Assembly: GCA_035936155.1 (NCBI GenBank)
Contig: DASYWJ010000034.1
Location: 66,586 to 130,585 of the forward strand
Length of the DNA: 64,000 nt
Direction of reading: 5' to 3'
Source: Tepidisphaeraceae bacterium
GTDB taxonomy: Bacteria > Planctomycetota > Phycisphaerae > Tepidisphaerales > Tepidisphaeraceae
Shown: positions 4,956 through 42,383 of the stretch, in pieces
How positions within the stretch are numbered: position 1 is the stretch's first letter
How the letters are laid out: each line of letters opens with the position of its first letter
The notes under the pieces: model-generated
The model's input: the letters and a program-made list of their open reading frames with translations, nothing else
Databases searched by the model: none
What the model was told of the DNA's origin: nothing
Program-made: the position numbers and the translations under genes

Positions 4956-6724
4956 CTGCTCTTGGCGACGCCCCAGTCCTTCTGGATTCTGAGCAGCCGA
5001 TGGAAGCTTTCCTTCGGCGACATGTCCTTGTTCAGCAGCCCGCCGTGCGGCCAGAAGTGGCCGCCGACGTCGGCCAAGTCCCACCACTGCGCGACCTCGA
5101 TCTGTGGATGGCTGTAGCAAAGTGTAAACATTGCCTCGAGCCAGTCTGCCTGCAGCGTCTCGTTCCAGGCCTCGCCGTGCCAGGGCGGCGTTGCCGACTT
5201 GGGCCGCATGCTTTCGGGGTCCTGGCCCGGCTTGGCGCTGGTGGACATCTCGGTGATGTGGATCGGCTTGCCGATCACAAAATGGCGCTGGAGCATGCGG
5301 TCGATCTCGAACACGTCGTAACTTGGGTAGTACAGTTGCAGCCCAAGCGTCTCGAACTCCACGCCGTTGGCAAGGCAGTCCTGCGCAAACGTGAGCGGCG
5401 ACCAGCGACGCGAGCCGTCGCGGTTGCGGCGCACGGCATACTCGGCCCACTGGCAGCAGTGGTTGATCATGCGCTTGATCCGCGGGTGACCCTCGCGTGC
5501 CGCGCGGGTGACGGCTCGGGCCAGATCGAGAATCCGCTCGTGGTCCATGTGCCAGAGGTTGGCCTTGTCGTGCGCCTCGTTGAGGACCTCGACGTGGGGG
5601 ACGCGATCGCCGTACTTCTGGAGGAAATGAGCGCACGTCTGGCGGTTGATGTGCTCGTACAACTGCTTGACGCGCGGGTACGGCCAAGCGGGGTTGTACT
5701 CCCGGCGCGGCTCCGACTGCTCGCCGGTGGGAAGCGTCGTGGCGGGGAGTTCCACCGGCCGGATCCACTCCGGCATCGCGCCGCGGGCCATGTAACAGTA
5801 GCCAAAGCTCTTGGGCGTGATGCCCCGGGCGAGGCACCAGTCGATCGAGCCGTCCATCCGCGCGTAATCGACGTACGGCGGCTCGGGCGTTTTCCAAGTG
5901 TACCACGCGCCGGTGGCAAAATTGAACGCCTGCTCGACCGCCTCGTCGTAGGCGGGAAACTGCCCATACTTCGACACCATCACGCCAAAGCCGAAGTCCT
6001 TGCGCGGCTCGGGGAAGCGGGAGATGCGGTGCTTCGCCGCATTGAGCGCAAACGACTCGCCGGCGTGCATGGCGAGCGACAACGCCTCATACGCCGCCGC
6101 GGTGCTGCTCCCGGAAGACCTGCGACCTTGTTGGAGCCGCACCGCCGCGGCGTGAAGGCGTCGACTTGCAATTACATCGGCGCGCATGCCGGCGGTCGCC
6201 GCCGCACGGATCGCTTCGCGCACGCGGTGCAGGCGCGTCTTGGCGGCCTCGACGACGAAGTCGATCTCGCCAGGCTTGTGGTAACCCAGTCCCTCGTTGT
6301 CTGCGTAGACGTACACCTCGCCAAAGTCCGGGATCTTCAGCCGGCACACGACCTGGATCGGCTCATTGGCGATGGCGACCCGCACCCGCCCATCGGCGCG
6401 GATGATCGCCTGCGGGAGCGGGTCGTTGTTGAGGTCGCGTGCGTGGAGGAGCCGGGCGCGGTCCGGCGCGAGCGACGAGCCGTCGACTTCGGTGAGCATC
6501 ACGCGGAGGTACCCGCGATCCCCGCCGACGGTGGGCGCGTTCGCCTCTTCAGCACCGAGGCCGTGGGAGGGATCGAGATCGGTCTCGCCGGTGGGCTGCG
6601 TGGTCGGGAGGGTGGCGGTTGGCCTCTTGTCCTGCCGGCACCCCGCCAGCGCCGCTGCGGCGGCAGCGGTGCCGATCAAAAACGTACGACGCGCTAGTGG
6701 CTCGTTCATTGGTGCTCCGAACAT
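4952..6724 (-). CDS. Glycoside hydrolase family 10-like (xylanase-type TIM barrel) with Tat signal and lipoprotein Cys
   Basis: RRTFLIGTAAAAAALAGC is a twin-arginine signal plus lipobox. GH10-like motifs are present: FNFATGAWYTWKT, VEVLNEAHD (acid/base) and IHITEMSTS (nucleophile). An alternative start is the ATG at 6709. Confidence 0.65.
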   Translation of the reverse strand: MFGAPMNEPLARRTFLIGTAAAAAALAGCRQDKRPTATLPTTQPTGETDLDPSHGLGAEEANAPTVGGDRGYLRVMLTEVDGSSLAPDRARLLHARDLNNDPLPQAIIRADGRVRVAIANEPIQVVCRLKIPDFGEVYVYADNEGLGYHKPGEIDFVVEAAKTRLHRVREAIRAAATAGMRADVIASRRLHAAAVRLQQGRRSSGSSTAAAYEALSLAMHAGESFALNAAKHRISRFPEPRKDFGFGVMVSKYGQFPAYDEAVEQAFNFATGAWYTWKTPEPPYVDYARMDGSIDWCLARGITPKSFGYCYMARGAMPEWIRPVELPATTLPTGEQSEPRREYNPAWPYPRVKQLYEHINRQTCAHFLQKYGDRVPHVEVLNEAHDKANLWHMDHERILDLARAVTRAAREGHPRIKRMINHCCQWAEYAVRRNRDGSRRWSPLTFAQDCLANGVEFETLGLQLYYPSYDVFEIDRMLQRHFVIGKPIHITEMSTSAKPGQDPESMRPKSATPPWHGEAWNETLQADWLEAMFTLCYSHPQIEVAQWWDLADVGGHFWPHGGLLNKDMSPKESFHRLLRIQKDWGVAKSS

Positions 6725-6912
6725 TTACTCCCCCTCACCGGTATTCCGGAGAGAGGGTTGGGGAGAGAGGCAAGCGGCGCGGCAGACGAAGCATCGGTTG
6801 CGTCGAGAAAACGCCGATCTTCGACGCGAACGATCATCGTTTGTCCGAACGCACCCCGCCCCTCTCCCCTGCCCTCTCCCCGGAGTACCGGTGAGAGGGA
6901 GGACGCCAATCG

Positions 6913-9789
6913 CTAATCCAAATCTGTCTTCACCCCGCCCGTGCCCGTTGTTTCCGCAACCAGGCCGATCTTTGCGGCGCCGGAGTCTTTTGCAGTCTTC
7001 CAGTAGCGCAGCGTCAGGTCCATCGCCGCCTGCGTCACGTCTTCCTGTGTCTTGCCGGTGACGATCAGCTGCTCGCCCTGCTCATTGCTGCCGGGGGCGA
7101 GGCGGATGGTGGGCTTGTCGGCCTTGCCTTTGGAAACGTAGATGATGCCGCCGCGTTTTTTCACGTCGTCGGGCAAGTCGTTGGCCTGAAAGATGTCGAC
7201 TACGCGCCCGGTCGCCGATTCCAGCGTCTGATAGATGACCCACGCCGCCTCGAGCTCCATCACCGATGCCTCGACCGGATAAACCACCGCGATTGGTCGG
7301 TTGAAGTCGAAGTCGAGCGCATTGCTCTCGTAGGCTACTTCCGTGCTCGTCTGCGCGTCCATCTTCGGCGCCCCCGCGTAGCGCGCCTCCGCCCATCCGT
7401 AGCGCGACCCGTCGCCGCATTCAATCCGCAGGAACACGTGATAAAACCCCGGCTTGGCATCGTCCGGCAGCGAGATTGCCATCGGGTAGGTCTTTGATTC
7501 ACCCGGCTCTAATTCGAGCAGGAGCGTGACTCGCGGCGAATGAGCCATTGACGCCACGATGCCGGCAGCCGCCTCCGGCCGGGCGCTGCACTTGAGCGGA
7601 TTGTCGCTGTTGTTCGTGATCGTGAACTCGGCGACGCCGCCGCCGTCTTTGAGCTCGACGACCGGGCGGTTGATCCCGATCAGCCGCGTCGCGCCGGCGG
7701 GGTTTGAATAGGCCTGGATCAACTCCATCATCACCATCGCCTCCGGCTTGGGCCGGCGGCTGAGGTTGAGCAGCTCGTAGTGGCGGATGCCCTTGAGCGT
7801 CGTCGGGCTCATGGCCAGCCCGTCCTGGAACTGGAACTGATAGACGTCGGCGATGGCCCGCGTCTTGAGGATGTTCTCGAAGATCGGCCGGTAAATCTCC
7901 GCCCGCGCCTCGGGTGTCATGCGCGTGAGAAATCTCCAGTTCCACTCGGTGATCACCGGCGGCTTGTTCACCGTCGTCGCATAATCGGCGACGGCCAGCC
8001 CGAAATTCCTTCCGCTGTTGATATTGTCGAGCGAGTCCATGTACGCGTGCGCGCCGACGCGGTCGAACGGGACGCCCAGCGCATTGAGCCGGTCAAACGC
8101 ACCGGTGTTCGTGTGTGCCGTGAGGTGCACGGGCATGTCCGGCGCGACTTCTTTGATCGCCTTATACACGTCCTTCCAGTACTGCACGTCCGCGTCGAAG
8201 ATCTGGAAGATGAGGATTTCGTTGTCGATCTCGACGCCGTCGATCAGGTCGCGGTAGCGCTTGACGAACTTGGCCGTCTCCTCGGGCGAGGTTTTGATGT
8301 CGAGCAGCGCCTTGAGGCCGAGGTTTTTCAACTCCCCGAAGTAGAAGTCGAGGTAGTCATTGCGCTGCTGCTCGGTGAGATACGCTTTGCCGTCTGCATC
8401 GTTGTCCCAGAGCAGCTCGACGTGGTGCAGCCGGATCAGCTCGAATCCCATCGCCTTGGCGATTCGCAGGTCGCGCTTGATGTCGTCGGCGAAGCGCTTG
8501 TACTGCTTGACCGTCTCGGGCGCGAGCGGCCAATAGTAATCCTTGCTCATGCCCGGCTGCTTCAGGGTGACGAAGTTCTCCCCCAGCGTGGAGTACGGGA
8601 AGTAGTTCGTGCCGAAGCGCGTGAACGGAACCCCGAAGGACACCTTCGCGCCGTCTGAGGTCTTTTCCTGCGCGTTGTAGCCGGTGTAGGCGATGAAGTG
8701 CTGATCGGCGCGCTCTTCGCTGATGGGCACGCCGCTGAAGATCATGCGCGATCCGATCAGCAGCCCCTCCCCCGGCGGCGGGAGCACGTTGTGGTCCAAC
8801 CGGGAGAGGTGCTGGCGCAGGTTGGGGCGTGCGATTTCGCTGATCGAGTAAATCGTGTCGCCCTTTGCCTGAGCTTCCTGTGCGACCTGGGCGGTATTGG
8901 CGCCGATCCAGCGCGGGCCGACTTTGTCGGTCTTCTCGCGATGGACTGTGAACGATGGAGTGAAATCCTTCAGCCACAGGGCGGAAGATCCGGGGCTTGC
9001 GCCTGCGGCTGTGAAGGAGGTGTTGATCCAGTCGACCCCACGCTGGAAATACAGGTGCCGGCCCTGCCCGTGACGGAAGGGGCTGTATGCTTGGCCGGTA
9101 AAATCGGAGGTGCGGTTGTCATAGCAGAGCGTGCGCGCGTGAATGCTGGGCTGCTGCCAGCGGCAGATGACGGCGGCGTAGACATCCTCCGTCGGCGCCG
9201 ACTCATTCGTATAGCGCGCGCTCACGTCGAGAAATCCCGCCCGATACGCGCGCAGCTCGACGTCGAGCTTCAACCCCGATCCCGACGCCGAAGCCGACCA
9301 CGTCTCGAACACCGGTCCCTCGCCAGTCTTTCGGAACGACAGCGGCAGCGGAGAGAACCCGGCGGCGAAGTCGCCCTTCGTGTCCAGCGCCTTCATCTGC
9401 GTCTGCGGTCCGTTTGGGTCTATCGGCCGAACGATCACGCCCCATGCGAGTTCGCCGCGGTCCTTCCCGTCGAACGCGATGCGAACCGCATTTGCGTCCG
9501 GCTTCAGCTCCACCCGGCTGCGCATCCGCACGTTGGGCGGGATCTCCAGCGGCGCCTGCACCTTCGCGCCGGCCGGCGCCGACATCACAATCACCGCGTC
9601 ATCCCCCACCTGCTGCGCTGCCGTGGCGCTGTCGGTGAGTTTCACCCCGCGCACCTGCACCGGCATGTGGATGTCAAACGGCTGGTTGTTGACGATGTCG
9701 ATCTGCTGCGCCCATGCGGGAACGACGACGAGGGCAGTGATCCACGCGACGCACAGACCAACGGCAGCGAGCGGTTTTCGTTGGAGCAT
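6913..9789 (-). CDS. Large secreted glycoside hydrolase (GH5-like TIM barrel; family call tentative)
   Basis: The tracked ORF begins with TTG at 9819. The ATG at 9789 gives MLQRKPLAAVGLCVAWITALVVVPAWAQQ, a signal peptide. The central region has a TIM-barrel GH pattern with EIDNEI (acid) and PPVITEWNW (nucleophile). Confidence 0.55.
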   Translation of the reverse strand: MLQRKPLAAVGLCVAWITALVVVPAWAQQIDIVNNQPFDIHMPVQVRGVKLTDSATAAQQVGDDAVIVMSAPAGAKVQAPLEIPPNVRMRSRVELKPDANAVRIAFDGKDRGELAWGVIVRPIDPNGPQTQMKALDTKGDFAAGFSPLPLSFRKTGEGPVFETWSASASGSGLKLDVELRAYRAGFLDVSARYTNESAPTEDVYAAVICRWQQPSIHARTLCYDNRTSDFTGQAYSPFRHGQGRHLYFQRGVDWINTSFTAAGASPGSSALWLKDFTPSFTVHREKTDKVGPRWIGANTAQVAQEAQAKGDTIYSISEIARPNLRQHLSRLDHNVLPPPGEGLLIGSRMIFSGVPISEERADQHFIAYTGYNAQEKTSDGAKVSFGVPFTRFGTNYFPYSTLGENFVTLKQPGMSKDYYWPLAPETVKQYKRFADDIKRDLRIAKAMGFELIRLHHVELLWDNDADGKAYLTEQQRNDYLDFYFGELKNLGLKALLDIKTSPEETAKFVKRYRDLIDGVEIDNEILIFQIFDADVQYWKDVYKAIKEVAPDMPVHLTAHTNTGAFDRLNALGVPFDRVGAHAYMDSLDNINSGRNFGLAVADYATTVNKPPVITEWNWRFLTRMTPEARAEIYRPIFENILKTRAIADVYQFQFQDGLAMSPTTLKGIRHYELLNLSRRPKPEAMVMMELIQAYSNPAGATRLIGINRPVVELKDGGGVAEFTITNNSDNPLKCSARPEAAAGIVASMAHSPRVTLLLELEPGESKTYPMAISLPDDAKPGFYHVFLRIECGDGSRYGWAEARYAGAPKMDAQTSTEVAYESNALDFDFNRPIAVVYPVEASVMELEAAWVIYQTLESATGRVVDIFQANDLPDDVKKRGGIIYVSKGKADKPTIRLAPGSNEQGEQLIVTGKTQEDVTQAAMDLTLRYWKTAKDSGAAKIGLVAETTGTGGVKTDLD

Positions 9790-28080: not shown

Positions 28081-30333
28081 ATGGCAGCGAATTTCGCCTG
28101 GGGCATCGACGTCGGCAACCGCGCGTTAAAAGCCATTAAGCTCGTCCGCGACGGCGACGGCGTCCGCATTGAGGACTTCGAGGTCATCGAGCACGAGACC
28201 GTCCTCTCCCAGGCCGGCGACAACCGTGAAGCGATGATCCAGGCCGCCCTGTCCAACCTGGTGGCCCGCCACGCGTTCAAGGGCGGGGTGTGCGGCGTCG
28301 GCGTGAGCGGGCAGTCGAGCTTCGCGCGATTCATCAAGCTCCCGCCGGTCGAGCCAAAGAAGATCCCCGAGATCGTCCGGTTTGAGGCCATCCAGCAGAT
28401 CCCCTTCCCACTCGATGACGTCGAGTGGAGCTACCAGCTGTTCCAGAGCGAGACGAGCCCCGACGTCGAGGTCGGCATCTTCGCGATGCGCAAAGAGCTC
28501 GTGAACCAGCACATCAGCTACTTCATCGACCAGGAGCTGAATGTTCAGGTCGTGCAGATGAACCCCCTGGCCGTCTACAACGCGATGGCGTACGACGGGA
28601 AGATCAAGGGGACGACGATGATCGTCGATCTAGGGGCCGAGAACACCGACCTGATCATTGCCGACGAGGACACGATCTGGATGCGCTCGATCCCGATCGG
28701 CGGGAATAACTTCACCGAAGCGCTGGTCAAGAGCTTCAAGCTGAATTTCCAGAAGGCAGAGGAGCTGAAGCGCAACGCGGCCAGCAGCAAGTACGCGCGG
28801 CAGATCTTTCAGGCGATGCGGCCGATCTTTGCGGACCTGGTGGCAGAGGTACAGCGGTCCATCGGGTTCTACGCATCGGTGCACCGCGACTCGCGGATCA
28901 AGAAGATCATCGCGCTGGGCGGGACGTTCAAGCTCCCGGGGCTGCAGAAGTACCTCCAGCAGAACCTGCAGCTTGACGTCGAGCGCCTGGACCGGCTGGC
29001 AGCGGCCCCGCCGACCGACGGGAAGCTTGCGGCGGCGTTCAACGAAAACGCGCTGGCGATGGTGGGCGCCTACGGGCTGGCGCTGCAGGCGATGGGCGAG
29101 GGCAAGATCAGCAGCTCCCTGCTCCCAGCGCGCATCCGCCGCGAGAAGGCCTGGCAGGAGAAGACCAAGTGGTTCGCCGCCGCCGCGGCGCTGTTCGTCC
29201 TGGGGACGGCCATCCCGTACGGGAGCTGGTTCATCCACAAGATGCAGTACGACAACGAAAGCGCCGCCCGCGCGACCATTGCCAGCGTTCAGGCCACCGC
29301 CGCTGCGCTCGATACGGAGTGGCAGCAGATTCAGGACTCAGGCACTAATGACCGTCAGCGGATCATGAACATCCGCTCCCTGAGCGAGTATCGGGACCTC
29401 TGGCCGCAGCTGCTGGCCGACATCAACTCCGTGATTCCCAAAGGGGACCCCGCCACCCTGAAGCAGGTCCCGCGGAAAGAGCGGGAAGTGGTAAACGTGG
29501 AGAACATCATCACCCGGTATGAGCCGAACATCGGGGTGGCCGTTGCCGACCCGGACTTCAAGCGCTTCGCCGGTGTCGCCGGCTCCGGCGCCATGACGGG
29601 TAGCTTTGCCGCCCCCACCCCCGCGGCCGGGATGGGCATGGACCCGGGGATGATGGAAGACCCGGCGATGATGATGGAAGACCCGGCGATGATGGGGATG
29701 GGGATGGACATGGGGATGTCTCCCCAGCCCGTCGCGCCCGTCCCCGGCGCCGCCCCCGTCGCCGGCGGTGCAAGCACCGGGCACGGGTTCATCATCACGC
29801 TCACGGGCACGACGCCGCACGGGGATCCGGCCTCGCTGCTCACCGACACCGTCATCAAAGATCTGGGTGAGCTGTCGCTGGCCAAGCTGCCGAAGGGCAA
29901 GAAGTATTACATCGCCAAGGCGGAGATTGTCACGACAGCACCGCTGCGGGCCAACCAGGCGCGGATCACCGAGCTGCAGCGGGTGTTTCAGGCCGCCGAG
30001 GAGGCCAGAGGACTCGCTGCTCAACAGCAGCAGCAGCAGCAGCCATACCAGCGGGGACTGTACGATCCGGCGATGCAGCCGGAAATTGACATGGACCCCG
30101 CGATGAACGGGATCGGGGGCGTGGGACAGCCCGCGCTGGGCCCCAATGGCCAGCCTCTGGAAGACCCGCGGCCATTCCGGGATCGGCAGTTCCCCAGCGA
30201 GGACGTGCGGGACGACTCGGAGTTCTCGATCGTCTTCGCGGTCGTGCTCGACCCGAATGAGGCGCCGCCGGCGGATCCCAATGCCGCGCCGCTCGACCCG
30301 GCCGCAGACCCAACGGCTGCCGCAGTGCCGTAA
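28081..30333 (+). CDS. pilM: PilM-like actin-fold ATPase fused to a transmembrane segment and long periplasmic region (PilM-PilN / GspL-like fusion)
   Basis: N-terminal 350 aa align with PilM (GIDVGNRALKAIKL, VRFEAIQQIPFPLDDVEWSYQL, IVDLGAENTDLII). One TM helix (WFAAAAALFVLGTAIPYGSWFI) is followed by a 365-aa tail with a Met-rich DPAMM repeat and polyQ. A strong GAGGAG Shine-Dalgarno is present. Confidence 0.8.
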   Translation: MAANFAWGIDVGNRALKAIKLVRDGDGVRIEDFEVIEHETVLSQAGDNREAMIQAALSNLVARHAFKGGVCGVGVSGQSSFARFIKLPPVEPKKIPEIVRFEAIQQIPFPLDDVEWSYQLFQSETSPDVEVGIFAMRKELVNQHISYFIDQELNVQVVQMNPLAVYNAMAYDGKIKGTTMIVDLGAENTDLIIADEDTIWMRSIPIGGNNFTEALVKSFKLNFQKAEELKRNAASSKYARQIFQAMRPIFADLVAEVQRSIGFYASVHRDSRIKKIIALGGTFKLPGLQKYLQQNLQLDVERLDRLAAAPPTDGKLAAAFNENALAMVGAYGLALQAMGEGKISSSLLPARIRREKAWQEKTKWFAAAAALFVLGTAIPYGSWFIHKMQYDNESAARATIASVQATAAALDTEWQQIQDSGTNDRQRIMNIRSLSEYRDLWPQLLADINSVIPKGDPATLKQVPRKEREVVNVENIITRYEPNIGVAVADPDFKRFAGVAGSGAMTGSFAAPTPAAGMGMDPGMMEDPAMMMEDPAMMGMGMDMGMSPQPVAPVPGAAPVAGGASTGHGFIITLTGTTPHGDPASLLTDTVIKDLGELSLAKLPKGKKYYIAKAEIVTTAPLRANQARITELQRVFQAAEEARGLAAQQQQQQQPYQRGLYDPAMQPEIDMDPAMNGIGGVGQPALGPNGQPLEDPRPFRDRQFPSEDVRDDSEFSIVFAVVLDPNEAPPADPNAAPLDPAADPTAAAVP

Positions 30334-36150: not shown

Positions 36151-36548
36151 ACGACGGCGACGAGGGCGGATCGGAGGCGACGATCCACGCGCTGTTCGCG
36201 TCCGACCTCGCGCAGGACGTGCGCAGCGAGTTCAATGCGCGCCGCGACGAGGGGCTGAGCGCCGCCGACGCAACCGGCGCAGTCGTCGCCCACTTCCGCC
36301 ACCTGCTGGAGCGCGCGGAGGAAGGTCCGGTCGTCATCATCGCCATCGCGGTGCTGCAACTGCTCGAACGCGCCCCGACGGCGACCTTTCTCGACGCCGC
36401 GCTCGAGCTCCTGCGCGATGGACACGGATTCGCCACACGTGCAGGAGAGGACCTCTCGTTTCGCCGTAATCGCGAGCGCTTGCGTGAACAACTGATCGAG
36501 ATGCTGGAATCCGCGACGATCCTTCCCGAAGAGCCGGGAATGTCGTGA
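36147..36548 (+). CDS. Hypothetical protein, translationally coupled to argG (GTGA overlap)
   Basis: Strong GC3 bias and an amphipathic-helix-like composition. It has no ATG start; the first in-frame start is the GTG at 36147 overlapping the argG stop. A terminator hairpin follows. Confidence 0.45.
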   Translation: MNDGDEGGSEATIHALFASDLAQDVRSEFNARRDEGLSAADATGAVVAHFRHLLERAEEGPVVIIAIAVLQLLERAPTATFLDAALELLRDGHGFATRAGEDLSFRRNRERLREQLIEMLESATILPEEPGMS

Positions 36549-36556
36549 TATTCACC

Positions 36557-36603
36557 AACACATAGCCCCGGGCATACCCGGGGCTATGTGTTGGAGTCAT
36601 TGT
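36557..36603 (+). terminator. Rho-independent terminator (16-bp perfect stem, CATA loop, T-rich tail)
   Basis: AACACATAGCCCCGGG-cata-CCCGGGGCTATGTGTT followed by ggagtcattgttttc. Confidence 0.7.
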
Positions 36604-36717
36604 TTTCACGCGATATAGACGCGGATTCCCTTTATACTCGTCGCCGCCGGGGCCTTCCGTACAATTCACCGCGTACGATGGCCTTCACCTCACGCATGCA
36701 GCGTGGACGAGGTAGTG

Positions 36718-37563
36718 ATGACCGCCGCTTGGCTGCTCAGCTGGTGGAACCTGATCTTCATCGTGCCCTTCGGGCTCGCGATGGTGTATCTGGGTCTGTA
36801 CACCATGACCGGCCTGGGCGGCGACAACGACGCCGATGCCGATGCCGATGCGGATGCGGAGGCGCATGGCGATCTCGGCCATGATACCGATGCCGATGGG
36901 GATCATGGCGTGCACTCCGCGGAGATGCACCACGGTCATGCCGCAGCGCATGGCCATGAGCACGAGCAGGGACATGCCTCTGCCGCACAGCGCGAGCCGT
37001 CGATGCACGAGACGCTGCTGAACCTGGTGGGCGTCGGCCGGGCGCCGCTCGGAATTGTCCTGATGATTCTCCTGATGAGCTGGGGGTTCATCGGGTTCAG
37101 CATCAACCAGATCGTTCGTCCGATCGTGCCGGCGGACTGGATGGTGGCGCTGGCGTCGCTGCCACTGGCGGCATTTGGCAGCGTGGCCGTCACGGGGGGC
37201 ATCGCGCGGCTCGTCGCCCGGCTGCTCCCGACCACCACGACAACCGCTCATCGCCGCCGCGAGCTGTGCGGCTGCGTTGGTGAAGCGATGTACGAGATCA
37301 CCAGCAACTTCGGGATGGTCGCCGTCCGCGATCGCGACGGCAATCACTACCAGCTGCCCTGCCGCGTTTCCGCCGACCGCGGGCCCATCGCCAAGGGGGA
37401 GCCGGTGTTGCTCGTCCGCTACGACCCGGCGACGAAGATGTATGATGTCATCGCCGACGAACTCGGGCGCGCGGCGCGGGCCCTGAACCAGCCCGCGCCG
37501 GACGCGGCGGCGGTGGAGCGAACCATGGATTCAGCTCAGGAAAGGGACCGGGTGTCACAATGA
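36718..37563 (+). CDS. NfeD-like membrane protein (C-terminal OB-fold) with an Asp/His-rich insertion
   Basis: N-terminal TM helix, then DNDADADADADAEAHGDLGHDTDADGDHGVHSAEMHHGHAAAHGHEHEQGH, more TM helices and an OB-fold-like C-terminus (GMVAVRDRDGNHYQLPCR...GEPVLLVRYD). The stop overlaps the flotillin start as ATGA. An alternative GTG start is at 36703. Confidence 0.7.
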   Translation: MTAAWLLSWWNLIFIVPFGLAMVYLGLYTMTGLGGDNDADADADADAEAHGDLGHDTDADGDHGVHSAEMHHGHAAAHGHEHEQGHASAAQREPSMHETLLNLVGVGRAPLGIVLMILLMSWGFIGFSINQIVRPIVPADWMVALASLPLAAFGSVAVTGGIARLVARLLPTTTTTAHRRRELCGCVGEAMYEITSNFGMVAVRDRDGNHYQLPCRVSADRGPIAKGEPVLLVRYDPATKMYDVIADELGRAARALNQPAPDAAAVERTMDSAQERDRVSQ

Positions 37564-39494
37564 TCTTCGTGCTGTTCCTCATCGGTCTTGCGTTGGCCGT
37601 CGGACCGTACTTCCTTCCGCTCCTCGGGGTGGAGTTGGGGTTCGTGTCGCAGGTGCTGATCTCCGGCGCGGGGCTCGTCGTGCTCGCGCTGGTGGCGCTG
37701 ATCGCCGCCGTCAACCGGCTGTGGCGCAAGGCGTCGGCCAACATGGCGTTCGTACTCACCGGCGGAAAACAGGCGCGGGTGATCGTGGACGGCGGCGCGT
37801 TCGTCATCCCCGTAGTGCACCACGTGACGCCGGTTTCGCTGGAGACGATGCGCCTCAACGTCGAGCGCCGCGGCACCCACGCGCTGATCACCAAGGACAA
37901 CCTGCGCGTCGACCTCTCGGCCGAGTTCTACATCAAGGTGCAGGCCAACCAGGAGGACATCCTCCAGGCCGCTCGCTCGCTGGGCGGGCGCAGCGTCGAG
38001 CCGGGCGCAGTCAGCGAGCTGGTTCAGGAGAAGCTGGTGAGCGCCCTGCGCACCGTCGCGGCGACAAAGGACCTCGTCGAGCTGCACGCCAAGCGCGATG
38101 AGTTCGCCAGCGCCGTGCAGCAGATCGTCACCCACGACCTGGCCAGCAACGGCTTGACGCTGGAATCGGTCACGATCTCCGCCCTCGACCAGACCGATCC
38201 CACGCAGCTCCAGGAGCGCAACGTCTTCGACGCCCAGGGGCTGCGGAAAATCGCCGAGATCACCATGAAGGCGAAGGTGGAGCGCAACGAGATCGAGCAG
38301 GAGAGCTCGCGGATGGTCGTGCAGAAGAACGTCTCCACCCGCAAGCACGTGCTGGACCTGGAGCGCGAGCAGGCGGAGTTCGAGGCCGAGCAGCGCTCGA
38401 AAGTGGCCAATGTGCGAGCTCAGCGCGAGCGCGAGATCGCGGAGTTCAAGCTGGCGCAGGACGAGGCCATCAGCCGGCGCGACATCGAGAAGATGAAGCA
38501 GATCGAGACCGCCGAGGTCGAGCGGACGCTGGCGGTGGAGCAGGCGCAGGTGTCGAAGCAGGTGGCGCTGATCGCGACCATGAAGGAGCAGGAAACGGCG
38601 GAGATCCTCAAGAAGCAGGCGGTGGAAGTGGCCGAGCGGGCGAAGGAAGTGGCCATCGCGCAGAAGGAGCGCGAGCGCGCGGCAGCCCAGGCGCAGGCCC
38701 TGTCGGCCGAGGCGGAGCGCGAAAAGGCCAAGCAGCAGGTTACGACGGTCACGGTCACGAGCGAGGCCGATCGCGAGGCCGCGAAGAAGCTGATCGCTGC
38801 CCAGCAGCAGGTCAAGGAAAAGCAGATTCGCGACCAGACGGAGGCCGACGTGCTCGCGTACATGGCGGTGAAGCAGGCAGAAGCCGAACGCCAGGCTGCC
38901 GAGATGCAGTACGAAGCCCGGCTGCGCCTGGCCGAGGCCGACGCGGCGTCGCAATCGAAGAAGGCCGAGGGCGAACGCGCGATCAAGATGGTCGACGTGA
39001 ACGTCGAGCGCGAGCGCGTCAACGTCGAGCAGGCCCGCGTGGAAGTCGAGCGCGTCAGCCTGAGCAACAAGAGCGAGTTCGAGGAGGCCGCGCTGAAGTT
39101 CGAGCTGGACAAGCTCCGCATCGAGGCCGACAAGCAGGTACGCATCGCCGCCGCACAGGCGCTGGGCAACATGCTCTCCAAGGCCAACATGCAGATTTTC
39201 GGCGATCCAACGACGATGAGCCGCATGAGCGAGCAGTTCATGCGCGCCGCCAGCCTGGGCACCGCCGCGGATGGTTTGATGCGTTCGCTCCCGCCGGACG
39301 CGCAAAACATGCTCGAGCGCGTCGCATCGAGCGTGGGGGTGGCGCTGAAGCCCTCCGACGTGCCGCACGATGGCGCCAACGGCAACGGCGCCTCCGATCC
39401 ACCCGCAGCCTCGCCCGAGCGCAGCGACGACATCGAGCCGACGCCTGAAAGCAAGTCGGTGAAGCGCGTCTCGCGCGAGGACCGCTCAAACTGA
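37560..39494 (+). CDS. Flotillin / SPFH (band-7) family protein with long EA-rich coiled-coil
   Basis: N-terminal TM region, an SPFH domain (ITKDNLRVDLSAEFYIKV...) and about 300 aa of E/A/K/Q coiled-coil typical of flotillins (FloT/YqiK-like). Confidence 0.85.
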   Translation: MIFVLFLIGLALAVGPYFLPLLGVELGFVSQVLISGAGLVVLALVALIAAVNRLWRKASANMAFVLTGGKQARVIVDGGAFVIPVVHHVTPVSLETMRLNVERRGTHALITKDNLRVDLSAEFYIKVQANQEDILQAARSLGGRSVEPGAVSELVQEKLVSALRTVAATKDLVELHAKRDEFASAVQQIVTHDLASNGLTLESVTISALDQTDPTQLQERNVFDAQGLRKIAEITMKAKVERNEIEQESSRMVVQKNVSTRKHVLDLEREQAEFEAEQRSKVANVRAQREREIAEFKLAQDEAISRRDIEKMKQIETAEVERTLAVEQAQVSKQVALIATMKEQETAEILKKQAVEVAERAKEVAIAQKERERAAAQAQALSAEAEREKAKQQVTTVTVTSEADREAAKKLIAAQQQVKEKQIRDQTEADVLAYMAVKQAEAERQAAEMQYEARLRLAEADAASQSKKAEGERAIKMVDVNVERERVNVEQARVEVERVSLSNKSEFEEAALKFELDKLRIEADKQVRIAAAQALGNMLSKANMQIFGDPTTMSRMSEQFMRAASLGTAADGLMRSLPPDAQNMLERVASSVGVALKPSDVPHDGANGNGASDPPAASPERSDDIEPTPESKSVKRVSREDRSN

Positions 39495-39548
39495 CCGACC
39501 CTCTTGTCCCCTCCCCCTGTGCCCAGGGGGAGGGGGAAAGGCTAAGAC

Positions 39549-39974
39549 GTGTCCATCCGCGACGATCTGAACTACGGACTCGCCGCCTTTGGCATCCAGA
39601 TCCCGGAGCGCCTCGATCTCGATGCGAGGCTGACAAGGCTCACCGAGAAGCCGGCACAAAACACCGTCGCCCTCGTAACCGGCGCTGCGGTGCTTTTCTA
39701 CATCGCCGAGCGCGACCACAACCCGAAAGTCCGTGACCTCTACGATGCGCTCGTCTACTGCACGACCAACATCTCGGTCGGCTATTGCGACATCTTCGCG
39801 CAGACGCCTGTTGGAAAGCTGATCGGCAGCATGCTGATGACCATCGGCCCGTCGATGGCCGCGAAGACCCTCGATGGGCCAAAGCAACCCGAGGCCGACG
39901 AAACGCAGCGGCAAATCCTCGCCACCCTGCAGGAGATCGCCGCAAAGCTCGACGCGCCTGCCGTGGGCGAATAG
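39549..39974 (+). CDS. Minimal two-TM potassium-channel-like pore protein (KcsA-like fold) with atypical SVGYCD filter
   Basis: AERDHNPKVRDLYDALVYCTTNISVGYCDIFAQTPVGKLIGSMLMTIG aligns position-by-position with the KcsA segment AERGAPGAQLITYPRALWWSVETATTVGYGDLYPVTLWGRCVAVVVMVAG. The sequence reads as TM1 - pore helix - filter - TM2. Confidence 0.6.
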   Translation: MSIRDDLNYGLAAFGIQIPERLDLDARLTRLTEKPAQNTVALVTGAAVLFYIAERDHNPKVRDLYDALVYCTTNISVGYCDIFAQTPVGKLIGSMLMTIGPSMAAKTLDGPKQPEADETQRQILATLQEIAAKLDAPAVGE

Positions 39975-40002
39975 TCGCTCGCCGAGCGTCAATCAACGTG
40001 AT

Positions 40003-40953
40003 ATGACCGACGACACGCGCCCCGATCGCACGCCGCTGGTTCCCCCCGGGGGCATCGACCATCATTCTGCCGACATGACCGCGACGTTCGCCGCCGACGT
40101 CACACTCAAACAAGCGCAGGCGGCGCTGGGCCAGCGCGAGCACTGGCTTCCGATCGACGGCGACGAAGACCTGCCGCTCGGTCAGCTGATCGAGCAAAAC
40201 TCGACGGGGCCGCTGCGGCTGGGTTACGGCGCGTGGCGCGACCTGCTGCTGGGGGTGCAGTTTCAGGACGGCCACGGCAAGCTCATTACCGCCGGCGGTG
40301 CGACGGTAAAGAACGTCGCCGGCTACGACCTGACGAAATTCATGGTCGGTCAGCGCGGCGTTTTCGGACAAATCGTGACGCTGACGACGCGGACATACCG
40401 CCGCCCTGCCGTGGCCCTGCTCGCCCGCTTCCCCGCGCGGCAATCGATCATCAACGCCCTGCTCCCGACCGACCATCGCCCGCAGTGGGCGCTGCTCACC
40501 AGGGAGGCGCTGAACTGCGGATACCTCGGTGACGAGCAGTTCGGCGCGTTTCAGGAATCGGGACTGCGGCAGGCCGGCGCGCTGCACGTCGCCCGCCGCA
40601 CGCTTCGCGATGACATCGAGCACCGCGCCGGGCTGTGGTGCTGCTACAACGATCTGGCCCTTCGGACATCGGTTCCCCCGGCGCGCATTGCGGAGTTCGT
40701 ATCGCTCGCGAAGCTCAGCGCCTGGGTCGCCGACGCCGCGTTCGGAATCGTGATCTCCTCGCCCACGTCGGAAACCAGCATCGAAGCGGTGAATCGCGCG
40801 GCGATAAGAGTCGGCGGGACGCTGACGATCACGTACCCACGTCAATCCCGCTTCGAGGTGTCGACAACCGACACCGAACGGGGAATGATTGAACGTCTGA
40901 AGGACGCGTTCGACCCGGAGAACCGTCTGACCCCTTTGCCCTGGCGGAGTTGA
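40003..40953 (+). CDS. glcE: FAD-binding oxidoreductase, glycolate oxidase subunit GlcE-like
   Basis: ATVKNVAGYDLTKFMVGQRGVFGQIVTLTTRTYRRP matches the E. coli GlcE segment. The C-terminal LKDAFDPENRLTP matches LKQQLDPCGVFNP. Confidence 0.75.
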   Translation: MTDDTRPDRTPLVPPGGIDHHSADMTATFAADVTLKQAQAALGQREHWLPIDGDEDLPLGQLIEQNSTGPLRLGYGAWRDLLLGVQFQDGHGKLITAGGATVKNVAGYDLTKFMVGQRGVFGQIVTLTTRTYRRPAVALLARFPARQSIINALLPTDHRPQWALLTREALNCGYLGDEQFGAFQESGLRQAGALHVARRTLRDDIEHRAGLWCCYNDLALRTSVPPARIAEFVSLAKLSAWVADAAFGIVISSPTSETSIEAVNRAAIRVGGTLTITYPRQSRFEVSTTDTERGMIERLKDAFDPENRLTPLPWRS

Positions 40954-42383
40954 AATTTTTCGTGAGTAGCAGCGCCCCATCGCTCTCCGGATTAGAACCC
41001 GCGCTCGCGCTCGATCCGCGCACCTACCAGCGCGCGCTCTCGTGCGTGCACTGCGGCCTCTGTCTCCCCGCCTGCCCCACGTACACGGAAACCGGCCACG
41101 AAGCCGACAGCCCGCGCGGCCGCATCCAACTGATGCGCGGGCTTGCCGACGGGCGCATCGAAGCCACGCCGACCGTTAAACACCACCTGGACCTGTGCCT
41201 CGACTGCCGTGCCTGTGAGACCGCCTGCCCCAGCGGCGTCGTGTATCACGAATTGATCGAGGAGACGCGGGCGCGATTTGCTGAGGAGGAGCGGCTCACG
41301 CTGCAGGGGCGGTTGATGCGGTGGATCTTCTTCAACGTTTTCGTCCATCCGACGCGGCTGAAGCTCGCGCTCTTGCCGGCACGCGTGATGCAGAAGATCG
41401 GCGTGTATGGTTTCCTGCGAAAGGTCGGCCTGTTCAAGCTCCTGCCGTCGCAGCTCCGCAAGATGGAGCAGATGCTCCCCGGCGAAGGCAAGCTCTGGCC
41501 GAGGGCCTTGCCGGAGCGCACGCATAGCGCGGGACCCGCTTGCGGCGCCGCGCACCAACGCGTGTCGATCCGCGACGCCGCAAGCGCCCCCCATGCCACT
41601 GAGATCAAGACCGTCGGCTTCTTCGCCGGCTGCATCGGCAGCGTGATGTTCGAGAAAGTGAACCGCCAGGCGGTCGAGCTGCTCGTGGCGTCCGACGTCG
41701 ACGTGCTCGCCCCGCATGATCAGACCTGCTGCGGCGCAATCCACCACCACAACGGCGCCCACCGCCCCGCCGAGGAGATGGCCCGGCGCAACATCGACAC
41801 CTTCCTCCCCGAAGGAAGGCCGGGAGTGGACGCCATCGCCACGAATATCGCCGGCTGCGGCGCGATGCTGCGCGAGTATGACTTGCTCCTACGCGATGAT
41901 CCCGCCTACGCCGAGCGCGCGAAGGAATTCACGCGCCGTGTCCGCGACATCAGCGAAGTCCTCGTCGACGTGAAGCTGCCGGAGATGAAGCACGCTATTA
42001 ACGCGACCGTCACGTACCACGACGCCTGTCATCTCGCGCACGCACAGAAGGTCGTGACGCAACCGCGCGCGCTGCTCGCCAGGGTGCCGGGATTAAAACT
42101 CGTCCCGCTTCCCGAGAGCGACATGTGCTGCGGCGCCGCAGGCACGTACAACCTCCAGCACCCGCAGATGGCGAGCCAGCTCGCCGAGCGCAAGCTGAAC
42201 AACATCGCCACCACCGGCGCGAGCGTCTGCGTCACCGGCAACGTCGGCTGCGCAATGCAGATCCAGAGCGAAGGGCACGCCCGCGGGCGACACCTTAAGG
42301 TCCTCCATCCCGTCGAACTCCTTCACGCCGCGGCATTCGGCTCTTCGGATTGCGGCAGGAACACCTTTCTGGGCTCATCCTGA
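40950..42383 (+). CDS. glcF: Glycolate oxidase iron-sulfur subunit GlcF-like (2x4Fe-4S plus two CCG domains)
   Basis: CVHCGLCLPACPTY, DSPRGRI, CLDCRACETACPSGV, HDACHLAHAQK and MCCGAAGTYNL. The TTG or GTG start overlaps the glcE stop. Confidence 0.85.
   Translation: MKFFVSSSAPSLSGLEPALALDPRTYQRALSCVHCGLCLPACPTYTETGHEADSPRGRIQLMRGLADGRIEATPTVKHHLDLCLDCRACETACPSGVVYHELIEETRARFAEEERLTLQGRLMRWIFFNVFVHPTRLKLALLPARVMQKIGVYGFLRKVGLFKLLPSQLRKMEQMLPGEGKLWPRALPERTHSAGPACGAAHQRVSIRDAASAPHATEIKTVGFFAGCIGSVMFEKVNRQAVELLVASDVDVLAPHDQTCCGAIHHHNGAHRPAEEMARRNIDTFLPEGRPGVDAIATNIAGCGAMLREYDLLLRDDPAYAERAKEFTRRVRDISEVLVDVKLPEMKHAINATVTYHDACHLAHAQKVVTQPRALLARVPGLKLVPLPESDMCCGAAGTYNLQHPQMASQLAERKLNNIATTGASVCVTGNVGCAMQIQSEGHARGRHLKVLHPVELLHAAAFGSSDCGRNTFLGSS

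Follow-up and report, generated by a model that had tools for sequence, protein, structure and literature searches.

The nfeD–flotillin–pore gene locus

We analyzed three consecutive genes on the plus strand of a 64-kb stretch of DNA (the window; the term always means the whole stretch) from a metagenome-assembled genome (MAG) of Tepidisphaeraceae (Planctomycetota, Phycisphaerae), with a G+C content of about 65%. The genes encode a short NfeD protein, a flotillin-type SPFH protein, and a small K-channel-like pore protein; the three products match the Pfam families YqiJ_N, Band_7, and Ion_trans_2, respectively, each above the gathering score. In an initial annotation, made from the sequence alone, the set had been described as a putative SPFH-regulated ion-channel operon. 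The coordinates given there, the overlap of the first two genes, the 54-nucleotide (nt) distance to the third gene, and the length of its product, 141 amino acids (aa), all hold on re-reading of the sequence. The features of the locus are as follows.

36718..37563, plus strand: short NfeD of the YqiJ/YuaF type, 281 aa (start ATG at 36718, stop TGA at 37561–37563)
37560..39494, plus strand: flotillin-type SPFH protein, 644 aa (start ATG at 37560–37562, stop at 39492–39494)
39508..39535, plus strand: perfect 12-bp GC hairpin, CCCCTCCCCCTG tgcc CAGGGGGAGGGG, inside the 54-nt spacer 39495–39548
39549..39974, plus strand: pore-only K-channel-like protein, 141 aa (start GTG at 39549, stop at 39972–39974)
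39774..39791, plus strand: codons of the selectivity filter S76-V-G-Y-C80-D81, as read from the sequence

The nfeD gene has an alternative in-frame GTG start at 36703. Its product has transmembrane (TM) segments in the N-terminal part, a loop rich in Asp and His, and an OB-fold-like domain at the C-terminus. It matches YqiJ_N (PF21001) at 6.6e-6, with 26.7 bits against a cutoff of 23, and the same family is matched by the NfeD orthologs at two of the related loci considered below (L104 and L167); the Pfam NfeD domain gives no match to the window protein at E ≤ 0.1. A profile built from 16 NfeD orthologs matches the soluble domain of Bacillus subtilis YuaF (2K14, residues 10–81) over profile positions 169–244, with modest significance (E = 0.0024).

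The first loop of NfeD (residues 36–88, nt 36823–36981) is an Asp/His-rich low-complexity segment, DNDADADADADAEAHGDLGHDTDADGDHG...HHGHAAAHGHEHEQGH. Loops rich in D, A, G, and H are present in all aligned NfeD orthologs (alignment A2), that is, they are a trait of the family; they may bind cations or metals.

The start codon of the flotillin gene overlaps the stop codon of nfeD as ATGA (37560–37563), and the two genes are translationally coupled. The flotillin translation has a hydrophobic N-terminal anchor, a Band_7 domain (residues 61–246, 7.1e-21), and a long coiled-coil region rich in E, A, K, and Q. The NCBIfam FloT model aligns with residues 68–448 at 7.2e-18, and its score, 64.9 bits, is far under the equivalog cutoff of 700; hence, going by its sequence, the second gene is named flotillin-type SPFH and not a FloT ortholog. 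The Pfam Flot family (PF15975) is undetected in the window flotillin, while the L167 counterpart matches it at 6.9e-21; a search of the PDB by sequence with the window flotillin yields no match. Together, the Pfam matches, the partial match to FloT, and the profile match to 2K14 bear out the initial assignment as regards a pair of a YuaF/YqiJ-type NfeD and a flotillin-type SPFH protein. According to PMC2636767, YuaF pairs with YuaG/FloT and YqiJ with YqiK; in both pairs, a short NfeD has a flotillin-type SPFH2 protein as its partner.

The small pore protein and its selectivity filter

The small open reading frame (ORF) is, to judge from its homologs, a real gene, since a word-indexed search yields 348 homologs at E ≤ 1e-3 (the 120 listed are all 56–100% identical), and an exhaustive hidden Markov model (HMM) search of 1.84 billion cluster representatives yields 637 proteins at E ≤ 1e-3 and 199 at E ≤ 1e-10. 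An NCBI record identical to it over 100% of residues (P0001) is named "ion channel [Tepidisphaeraceae bacterium]", and the databases call proteins of this family either "ion channel" or "voltage-gated potassium channel". Close homologs are 134–202 aa long; among the HMM matches listed all proteins are short, and the size range of the family is roughly 100–250 aa.

Ion_trans_2 matches residues 41–102 at 1.9e-6 (28.1 bits, cutoff 22.5). The AlphaFold2 monomer model, with a mean predicted local distance difference test (pLDDT) score of 72.5, places two helices at the N-terminus (residues 3–14, bearing DLNYGLAAFG, and 24–33), followed by TM1 (35–54), the pore helix (64–77), the filter, TM2 (87–108), and an amphipathic C-terminal helix (114–135). 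Alignment A1 of 20 close homologs shows the invariant N-terminal DLNYGLAAFG, a short TM1, the turret "AE(R)xxNPKV", the pore helix "DAxxYC(S/T)T" and, beyond the filter, "IFAxTPxGK", TM2 with an invariant Gly-Pro (residues 100–101 of the window protein), and the amphipathic C-terminal helix. When the PDB is searched with a profile of A1, the KvAP pore matches at 2.3e-7; the alignment has a single gap, in the pore helix, which is one residue shorter here than in KvAP. All 50 matches that Foldseek lists from the PDB come from the pore domains of K channels (KCNQ2, Kv4, MlotiK1, KcsA), with E-values of at least 0.017; the model superposes on KcsA (7mjt_C) with a root-mean-square deviation of 2.8 Å over 75 columns. 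On sequence and model, the assignment of a K-channel pore fold is sound. The residue-by-residue match with KcsA claimed initially thus stands for the fold (KvAP profile, KcsA superposition), and not for the details, as the pore helix is shorter and the filter has Cys for the second Gly. Past the hinge Gly-Pro, TM2 has only about eight residues before the sequence becomes polar ("GPSMAAKTLDGPKQ"), hence a substantial inner bundle-crossing gate is probably absent. A sensor domain is absent as well.

The filter itself reads SVGYCD, not TVGYGD: Cys takes the place of the second Gly of GYG, and the protein departs from the T/S-x-G-Y/F-G signature. Family-wide, the filter is S-V-G-Y-x-[D/N], where x is A, S, G, C, D, H, or T, and mostly GY[A/S/C]; canonical SVGYGD is a minority variant, found in 14 of the 114 motif-bearing close matches and 13 of the 117 motif-bearing representatives. 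Columns invariant across the family alignments are E, N, D, V-G-Y, T, G, and G-P; in alignment A3, made from the most distant members, S-V-G-Y, the pore-helix D-A, the post-filter Thr and Gly, and the Gly-Pro of TM2 are all invariant. By these alignments, the proteins are a small, distinct pore-only family within the K-channel pore superfamily.

Because the filter is GYC here and S-V-G-Y-x-[D/N] across the family, K+ selectivity should not be assumed. A non-canonical filter can alter selectivity, with an outcome that is difficult to foresee, and in a survey of the filters of K2P and other K channels cysteine occurs in UNC-58 only (PMC11513965); no literature on KcsA G79A was found. The K channel proposed in the initial annotation is therefore retained as regards the pore fold (Ion_trans_2, KvAP profile, AlphaFold2, Foldseek) and given up as regards the GYG filter; from the sequence, "K-channel-like pore" is justified, and "K+ channel" not yet.

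With such a filter, the family might have lost conduction altogether and serve as a tetrameric membrane anchor, a nucleator, or a lipid/stress sensor that organizes an assembly of flotillin and NfeD (and PspA, see below). The unconserved second Gly and the shortened pore helix fit this explanation, as does the conservation within Tepidisphaerales, which peaks at the cytoplasmic DLNYGLAAFG and not at the last position of the filter; there is also a precedent in the retinal-less flotillin-associated rhodopsins, where a divergent protein of a transport family probably lacks its cofactor and is tied to flotillin genes (PMC10308929). However, S-V-G-Y with the following D/N, the D-A of the pore helix, and the Gly-Pro of TM2 are invariant or nearly so in very distant members, and since such invariance matches purifying selection on an ion pathway, a mere anchor is hard to reconcile with it. 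We regard a non-conducting hub as unlikely, though as the main rival of the function proposed below.

Conservation of the gene neighborhood

In total, 171 loci with the channel gene were gathered, 71 of them with at least 2.5 kb on both sides; their neighboring genes were identified by tblastn and by iterated HMM searching. The tally excludes three false "nfeD" matches (L055, L066, L074), where the Asp/Ala-rich low-complexity loop drove the HMM, and flotillin coiled-coil matches that overlap PspA genes. Flotillin and/or nfeD is found in the flank of the channel gene at 62 of the 71 well-flanked loci (87%), in Planctomycetota, Myxococcota, and unassigned metagenome contigs; thus, the adjacency is not peculiar to one strain. 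In a collection of species-level genomes, the family occurs in Tepidisphaerales/Phycisphaerae and in Myxococcota (Polyangiaceae, Labilithrix, Sandaracinaceae), the latter including the cultured Labilithrix luteola DSM 27648 (NZ_CP012333.1, locus L031).

Wherever a Tepidisphaerales/Phycisphaerae locus extends far enough upstream, the gene immediately 5' of the channel gene is that for flotillin, itself preceded by nfeD in all cases where the latter was detected. The gene order in Tepidisphaerales is stable at 50–90% identity, and the module looks vertically inherited. The flotillins of the planctomycete loci are 66–89% identical, those of Myxococcota only 25–36%. In Myxococcota three arrangements are seen: nfeD, flotillin, channel (about 6 loci); channel, nfeD, flotillin (23 loci), with 32–90 nt between the channel and nfeD alignments; and a divergent one (13 loci), with nfeD and then flotillin reading away from the channel gene. 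At loci with inserted genes, nfeD still adjoins the channel gene and flotillin is a few kb off. In Myxococcota, the tightest neighbor of the channel is NfeD, not flotillin. A metagenome scan seeded from the most distant clades (GYA, GYH, and GYD filters) yields the order nfeD, flotillin, channel wherever at least 2.4 kb of upstream sequence is present, with the exception of L111. In L167, YqiJ_N, Flot (PF15975), and Ion_trans_2 proteins are encoded in this order, and the gap between the flotillin and channel genes is 4 nt. As for the three-gene order in related genomes, then, the neighborhood is kept, but the order varies, with NfeD as the closest partner in Myxococcota. The remaining flanking genes vary between loci; therefore, the module itself is the unit that is kept.

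At about 40 metagenome loci (among L087–L166), a short PspA/IM30 gene, encoding 143–154 aa, separates flotillin from the channel gene and/or directly follows the latter; the general order in metagenome clades with other filter variants is nfeD, flotillin, (pspA), channel. The Pfam E-values of these proteins range from 2e-18 to 3e-9, with scores above the gathering score. The PspA/IM30 genes assigned by Pfam at three of the loci are the following.

L086, 640–1092: PspA/IM30 gene, overlapping the channel gene by 4 nt at the channel start
L102, 3833–4261: PspA/IM30 gene
L146, 1832–2293 and 2917–3345: two PspA/IM30 genes

Between positions 30001 and 46000 of the window there is no PspA-like ORF. 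Through the recurrent PspA/IM30 genes, the module is linked to the biology of envelope stress: operons of PspA with band-7/flotillin and YqiJ/YuaF proteins have been described, and SPFH and PspA modules answer envelope stress (PMC11237479). In its text and supplement, that paper mentions no pore-only channel; the one channel that it does list, Ion_trans_2+TrkA, is RCK-gated and belongs to a polyamine operon.

The flotillin–channel spacer and transcription

The hairpin at 39508–39535 lacks a T-run and occurs nowhere else in the window; the folding of the window spacer has z = -2.9 relative to dinucleotide shuffles. In the equivalent Tepidisphaerales spacers (45–333 nt, drawn from loci L001–L024), z is below -2 in 14 of 21 cases, with a median of -3.0, and the sequences of these structured spacers are unrelated to one another. 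T-runs follow the spacer hairpins in L011, L017, and L020, and a few of the hairpins look like intrinsic terminators. The spacer hairpin is a candidate partial terminator, mRNA stabilizer, or translational element, and may set the ratio of scaffold to channel expression; it is a reasonable inference that attenuated read-through gives less channel than scaffold.

A palindrome, CCCTCTCCC...GGGAGAGGG, was observed in the spacers of L001, L005, L018, and L024.

Two further genes follow the channel gene.

40004–40953: glcE-like gene with FAD_binding_4, starting 29 nt past the channel stop
40950–42383: glcF-like gene with CCG and 4Fe-4S domains, downstream of the glcE-like gene

There is no terminator in the 29-nt gap between the channel stop and the glcE-like gene. 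The term "hard-wired operon", used initially for the three genes, is too strong, because the GC hairpin fills the spacer, as structures do at most orthologous loci, and the sequence runs without a terminator into the glcE/glcF-like genes. On the sequence evidence, the genomic link between channel and flotillin is robust; strict co-transcription is a separate and weaker claim.

The same features would be expected of an ordinary small K+ channel that serves K+ homeostasis independently, is transcribed on its own or with the downstream genes, and owes its place next to flotillin to inherited synteny without any coupling. A structured hairpin, in some cases similar to an intrinsic terminator, precedes the channel gene here and at most Tepidisphaerales loci; the glcE-like gene is close by and unseparated; and the database names given above say nothing more than channel. 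The adjacency, however, outlasts three gene orders, two phyla (at 25–36% flotillin identity), several filter clades, and changing flanks. With a few flotillin genes per genome of 5–12 Mb, the chance of a flotillin within 6 kb of a given gene is, by a rough estimate, well below 1%, against the 87% observed. In other clades, moreover, start and stop codons overlap or are 4 nt apart (L086, L167). We consider the ordinary channel quite improbable.

Proposed function of the module

The three genes would constitute a conserved functional module: the flotillin/NfeD (and PspA) scaffold would confine, stabilize, or occlude the predicted pore, its dedicated client, until stress releases it; in our judgment, this has about an even chance of being right. 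The gating implied by "SPFH-regulated" is pure inference.

By analogy with other two-TM channel subunits, the small protein is expected to assemble as a tetramer, its N- and C-termini both cytoplasmic. It would be a sensor-less, probably gate-less cation pore, whose S-V-G-Y-x-D/N filter would keep the inner K+ sites and alter the outer one; with the outer site altered and the inner ones kept, a weakly selective cation pore is more likely than a strict K+ channel. Left unattended, a pore of this kind would leak, and we propose that it works only as a client of the scaffold. The scaffold would touch the conserved cytoplasmic N-terminal helix and the C-terminal helix, and upon membrane stress the pore would be released or opened, with the resulting movement of cations. 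The short PspA/IM30 protein would be a further scaffold partner in many relatives. The spacer hairpin, in turn, may hold the channel output below that of the scaffold protein, as the latter is needed in many copies.

Several published observations are relevant here. Both flotillin and the OB domain of NfeD are on the cytoplasmic side and interact, and client membrane proteins are held by flotillin (PMC11222466). For YbbK–YbbJ of E. coli, the SPFH and NfeD proteins are reported to form a cage (Tan et al., 2024, as cited in PMC13086221). In a bolder version, the pore-only proteins would be the built-in membrane core of this class of flotillin/NfeD (and PspA) assemblies, a cage plugging the gate-less cation pore and opening on membrane stress; this version is tentative and rather doubtful.

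Without restraint, a pore that has no sensor and probably no gate would be toxic, and envelope stress elicits a response from SPFH and PspA modules (PMC11237479), as might also be expected of a defense or toxin-like effector, that is, a depolarizing pore held by the scaffold and freed on phage infection or another insult (abortive infection). The PADLOC defense models, however, match none of the three proteins at E ≤ 0.01. The surroundings of the locus are housekeeping genes (argG, a succinate-dehydrogenase-like Fe-S protein gene, and the glcE/glcF-like genes), and the vertical-looking inheritance in Tepidisphaerales is unlike that of a mobile island. An effector role is thus very improbable.

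A number of observations weigh against the module of a scaffold and a conducting client. Most members have another residue, even Asp or His, in place of the second Gly of the filter, and the pore helix is one residue shorter than in KvAP; because of both, the small protein is possibly non-conducting. The confidence of the monomer model is moderate (pLDDT 72.5), and the Foldseek E-values (at least 0.017) are weak. The linkage in cis is not obligatory, since nine well-flanked loci (L022, L043, L054, L055, L066, L072, L074, L082, and L169) lack a partner gene, among which L043, L054, L055, L066, L072, L074, and L082 are one Myxococcota subclade, and since L111, where the channel gene lies between sulfatase and creatininase genes, has no upstream scaffold genes. 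Finally, the spacer hairpin and the T-runs in some orthologous spacers weaken the case for co-transcription of flotillin and channel, and the channel gene may here be co-transcribed with the glcE/glcF-like genes, as the terminator-free gap suggests.

Comparison with known systems

The small protein resembles the pore module of KcsA and KvAP in the order of TM1, short turret, pore helix, filter, and TM2, with matches to Ion_trans_2 and to PDB profiles. The viral channel Kcv is likewise very small, has a short inner helix, and lacks a sensor domain. Unlike KcsA, KvAP, and Kcv, the proteins of the present family have the filter S-V-G-Y-x-[D/N] in place of T-x-G-Y/F-G-D; a pore helix shorter by one residue; an invariant Gly-Pro hinge with about eight residues after it; a conserved N-terminal helix and a C-terminal "LDxIL" helix; and the linkage to nfeD and flotillin.

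In eukaryotes, proteins of the stomatin family regulate channels: MEC-2 acts with MEC-4/10, stomatin with ASIC, podocin with TRPC6, and STOML3 with Piezo. The concept, an SPFH scaffold at the cytoplasmic leaflet modulating a channel, is the same; however, the eukaryotic partners are genetically unlinked and belong to other channel families, whereas here the link is genomic and the putative pore is of the K-channel type. For archaeal stomatin and NfeD, a role in the "ion channel aperture" was speculated upon (Yokoyama and Matsui, 2005, as cited in PMC13086221); no channel was attached to that speculation, and the present family supplies a candidate.

The nfeD–flotillin pair is similar to YuaF–YuaG (NfeD2–FloT) of B. 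subtilis and YqiJ–YqiK of E. coli, in which a short NfeD gene lies upstream of, and overlaps, a flotillin-type SPFH gene; by contrast, a channel-like gene is the third conserved member here and at more than 100 related loci, and none is mentioned for those operons in the available part of the source (PMC2636767). The similarity to the PspA–flotillin–YqiJ operons (PMC11237479) is through distant relatives, which carry pspA, while the window itself has none. Flotillin-associated rhodopsins (FArhodopsins) offer a parallel, being divergent members of an ion-transport family with altered key residues kept beside a flotillin gene (PMC10308929), although they are 7-TM rhodopsins of SAR11 and others.

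That the small protein is an "ion channel" is already in its database annotation, and the NfeD–flotillin pair is textbook knowledge. No description of a linkage between flotillin/NfeD and channel genes was found in the searchable literature, in agreement with the initial remark that the arrangement was not recognized as described; relative to this literature, both the separate pore-only family with the S-V-G-Y-x-D/N filter and its place as a conserved third member of flotillin/NfeD (and PspA) modules are new. The targets of bacterial flotillin and NfeD are debated, and clients usually come from proteomics, so that a linked pore gene provides a ready-made hypothesis of a dedicated client, and the relation between scaffold and channel could be tested with a three-gene construct. 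The family is also a natural experiment on the part of the outer filter site in selectivity and gating. If the bolder version given above is right, the assembly would be the first genetically defined prokaryotic complex of an SPFH protein and an ion channel, bacterial flotillins would gain a dedicated client, and channel regulation of the stomatin type would be ancient and born in bacteria.

Flanking sequences and individual loci

Scanning for sigma-70 promoters gave no match, the sigma-70 model being uninformative for Planctomycetota, and an Rfam scan of 36400–40100 gave only sub-threshold chance matches (Pab91, 25 bits against 71; sX6, 17 against 40). The glcE/glcF-like genes were considered as members of the module and rejected: they trail the channel gene in the nearest relatives only (L001), and not in L003 and others. 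Upstream of nfeD lies one further feature, which marks the end of the upstream gene and the 5' boundary of the nfeD–flotillin unit.

36555..36594, plus strand: terminator-like hairpin with an 18-bp perfect stem, a 4-nt loop, and a T-rich tail

Some individual loci have features of their own. In L022, a contig binned to Myxococcota (Archangium sp. MAG), a planctomycete-type channel (6001–6345) has the filter SVGYGD, is 54% identical, and has the same C-terminal helix, with no flotillin or NfeD within 6 kb of the channel; either horizontal transfer or faulty binning of the contig might account for it. In L169, with the filter SVGYDD, the channel gene is convergent with a minus-strand gene encoding a 919-aa HSP70+DUF3731 protein (6521–9280), and no scaffold genes are nearby. 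L021 contains a second flotillin-like ORF (7036–7428) about 640 nt 3' of the channel gene, at the contig end. In L026 (Polyangiaceae), a 427-aa ORF (6345–7628), with an apparent resemblance to Ser/Thr protein kinases at the N-terminus (…GRYRILDPIGAGGMGAIYEA…), is located between the channel gene and nfeD.

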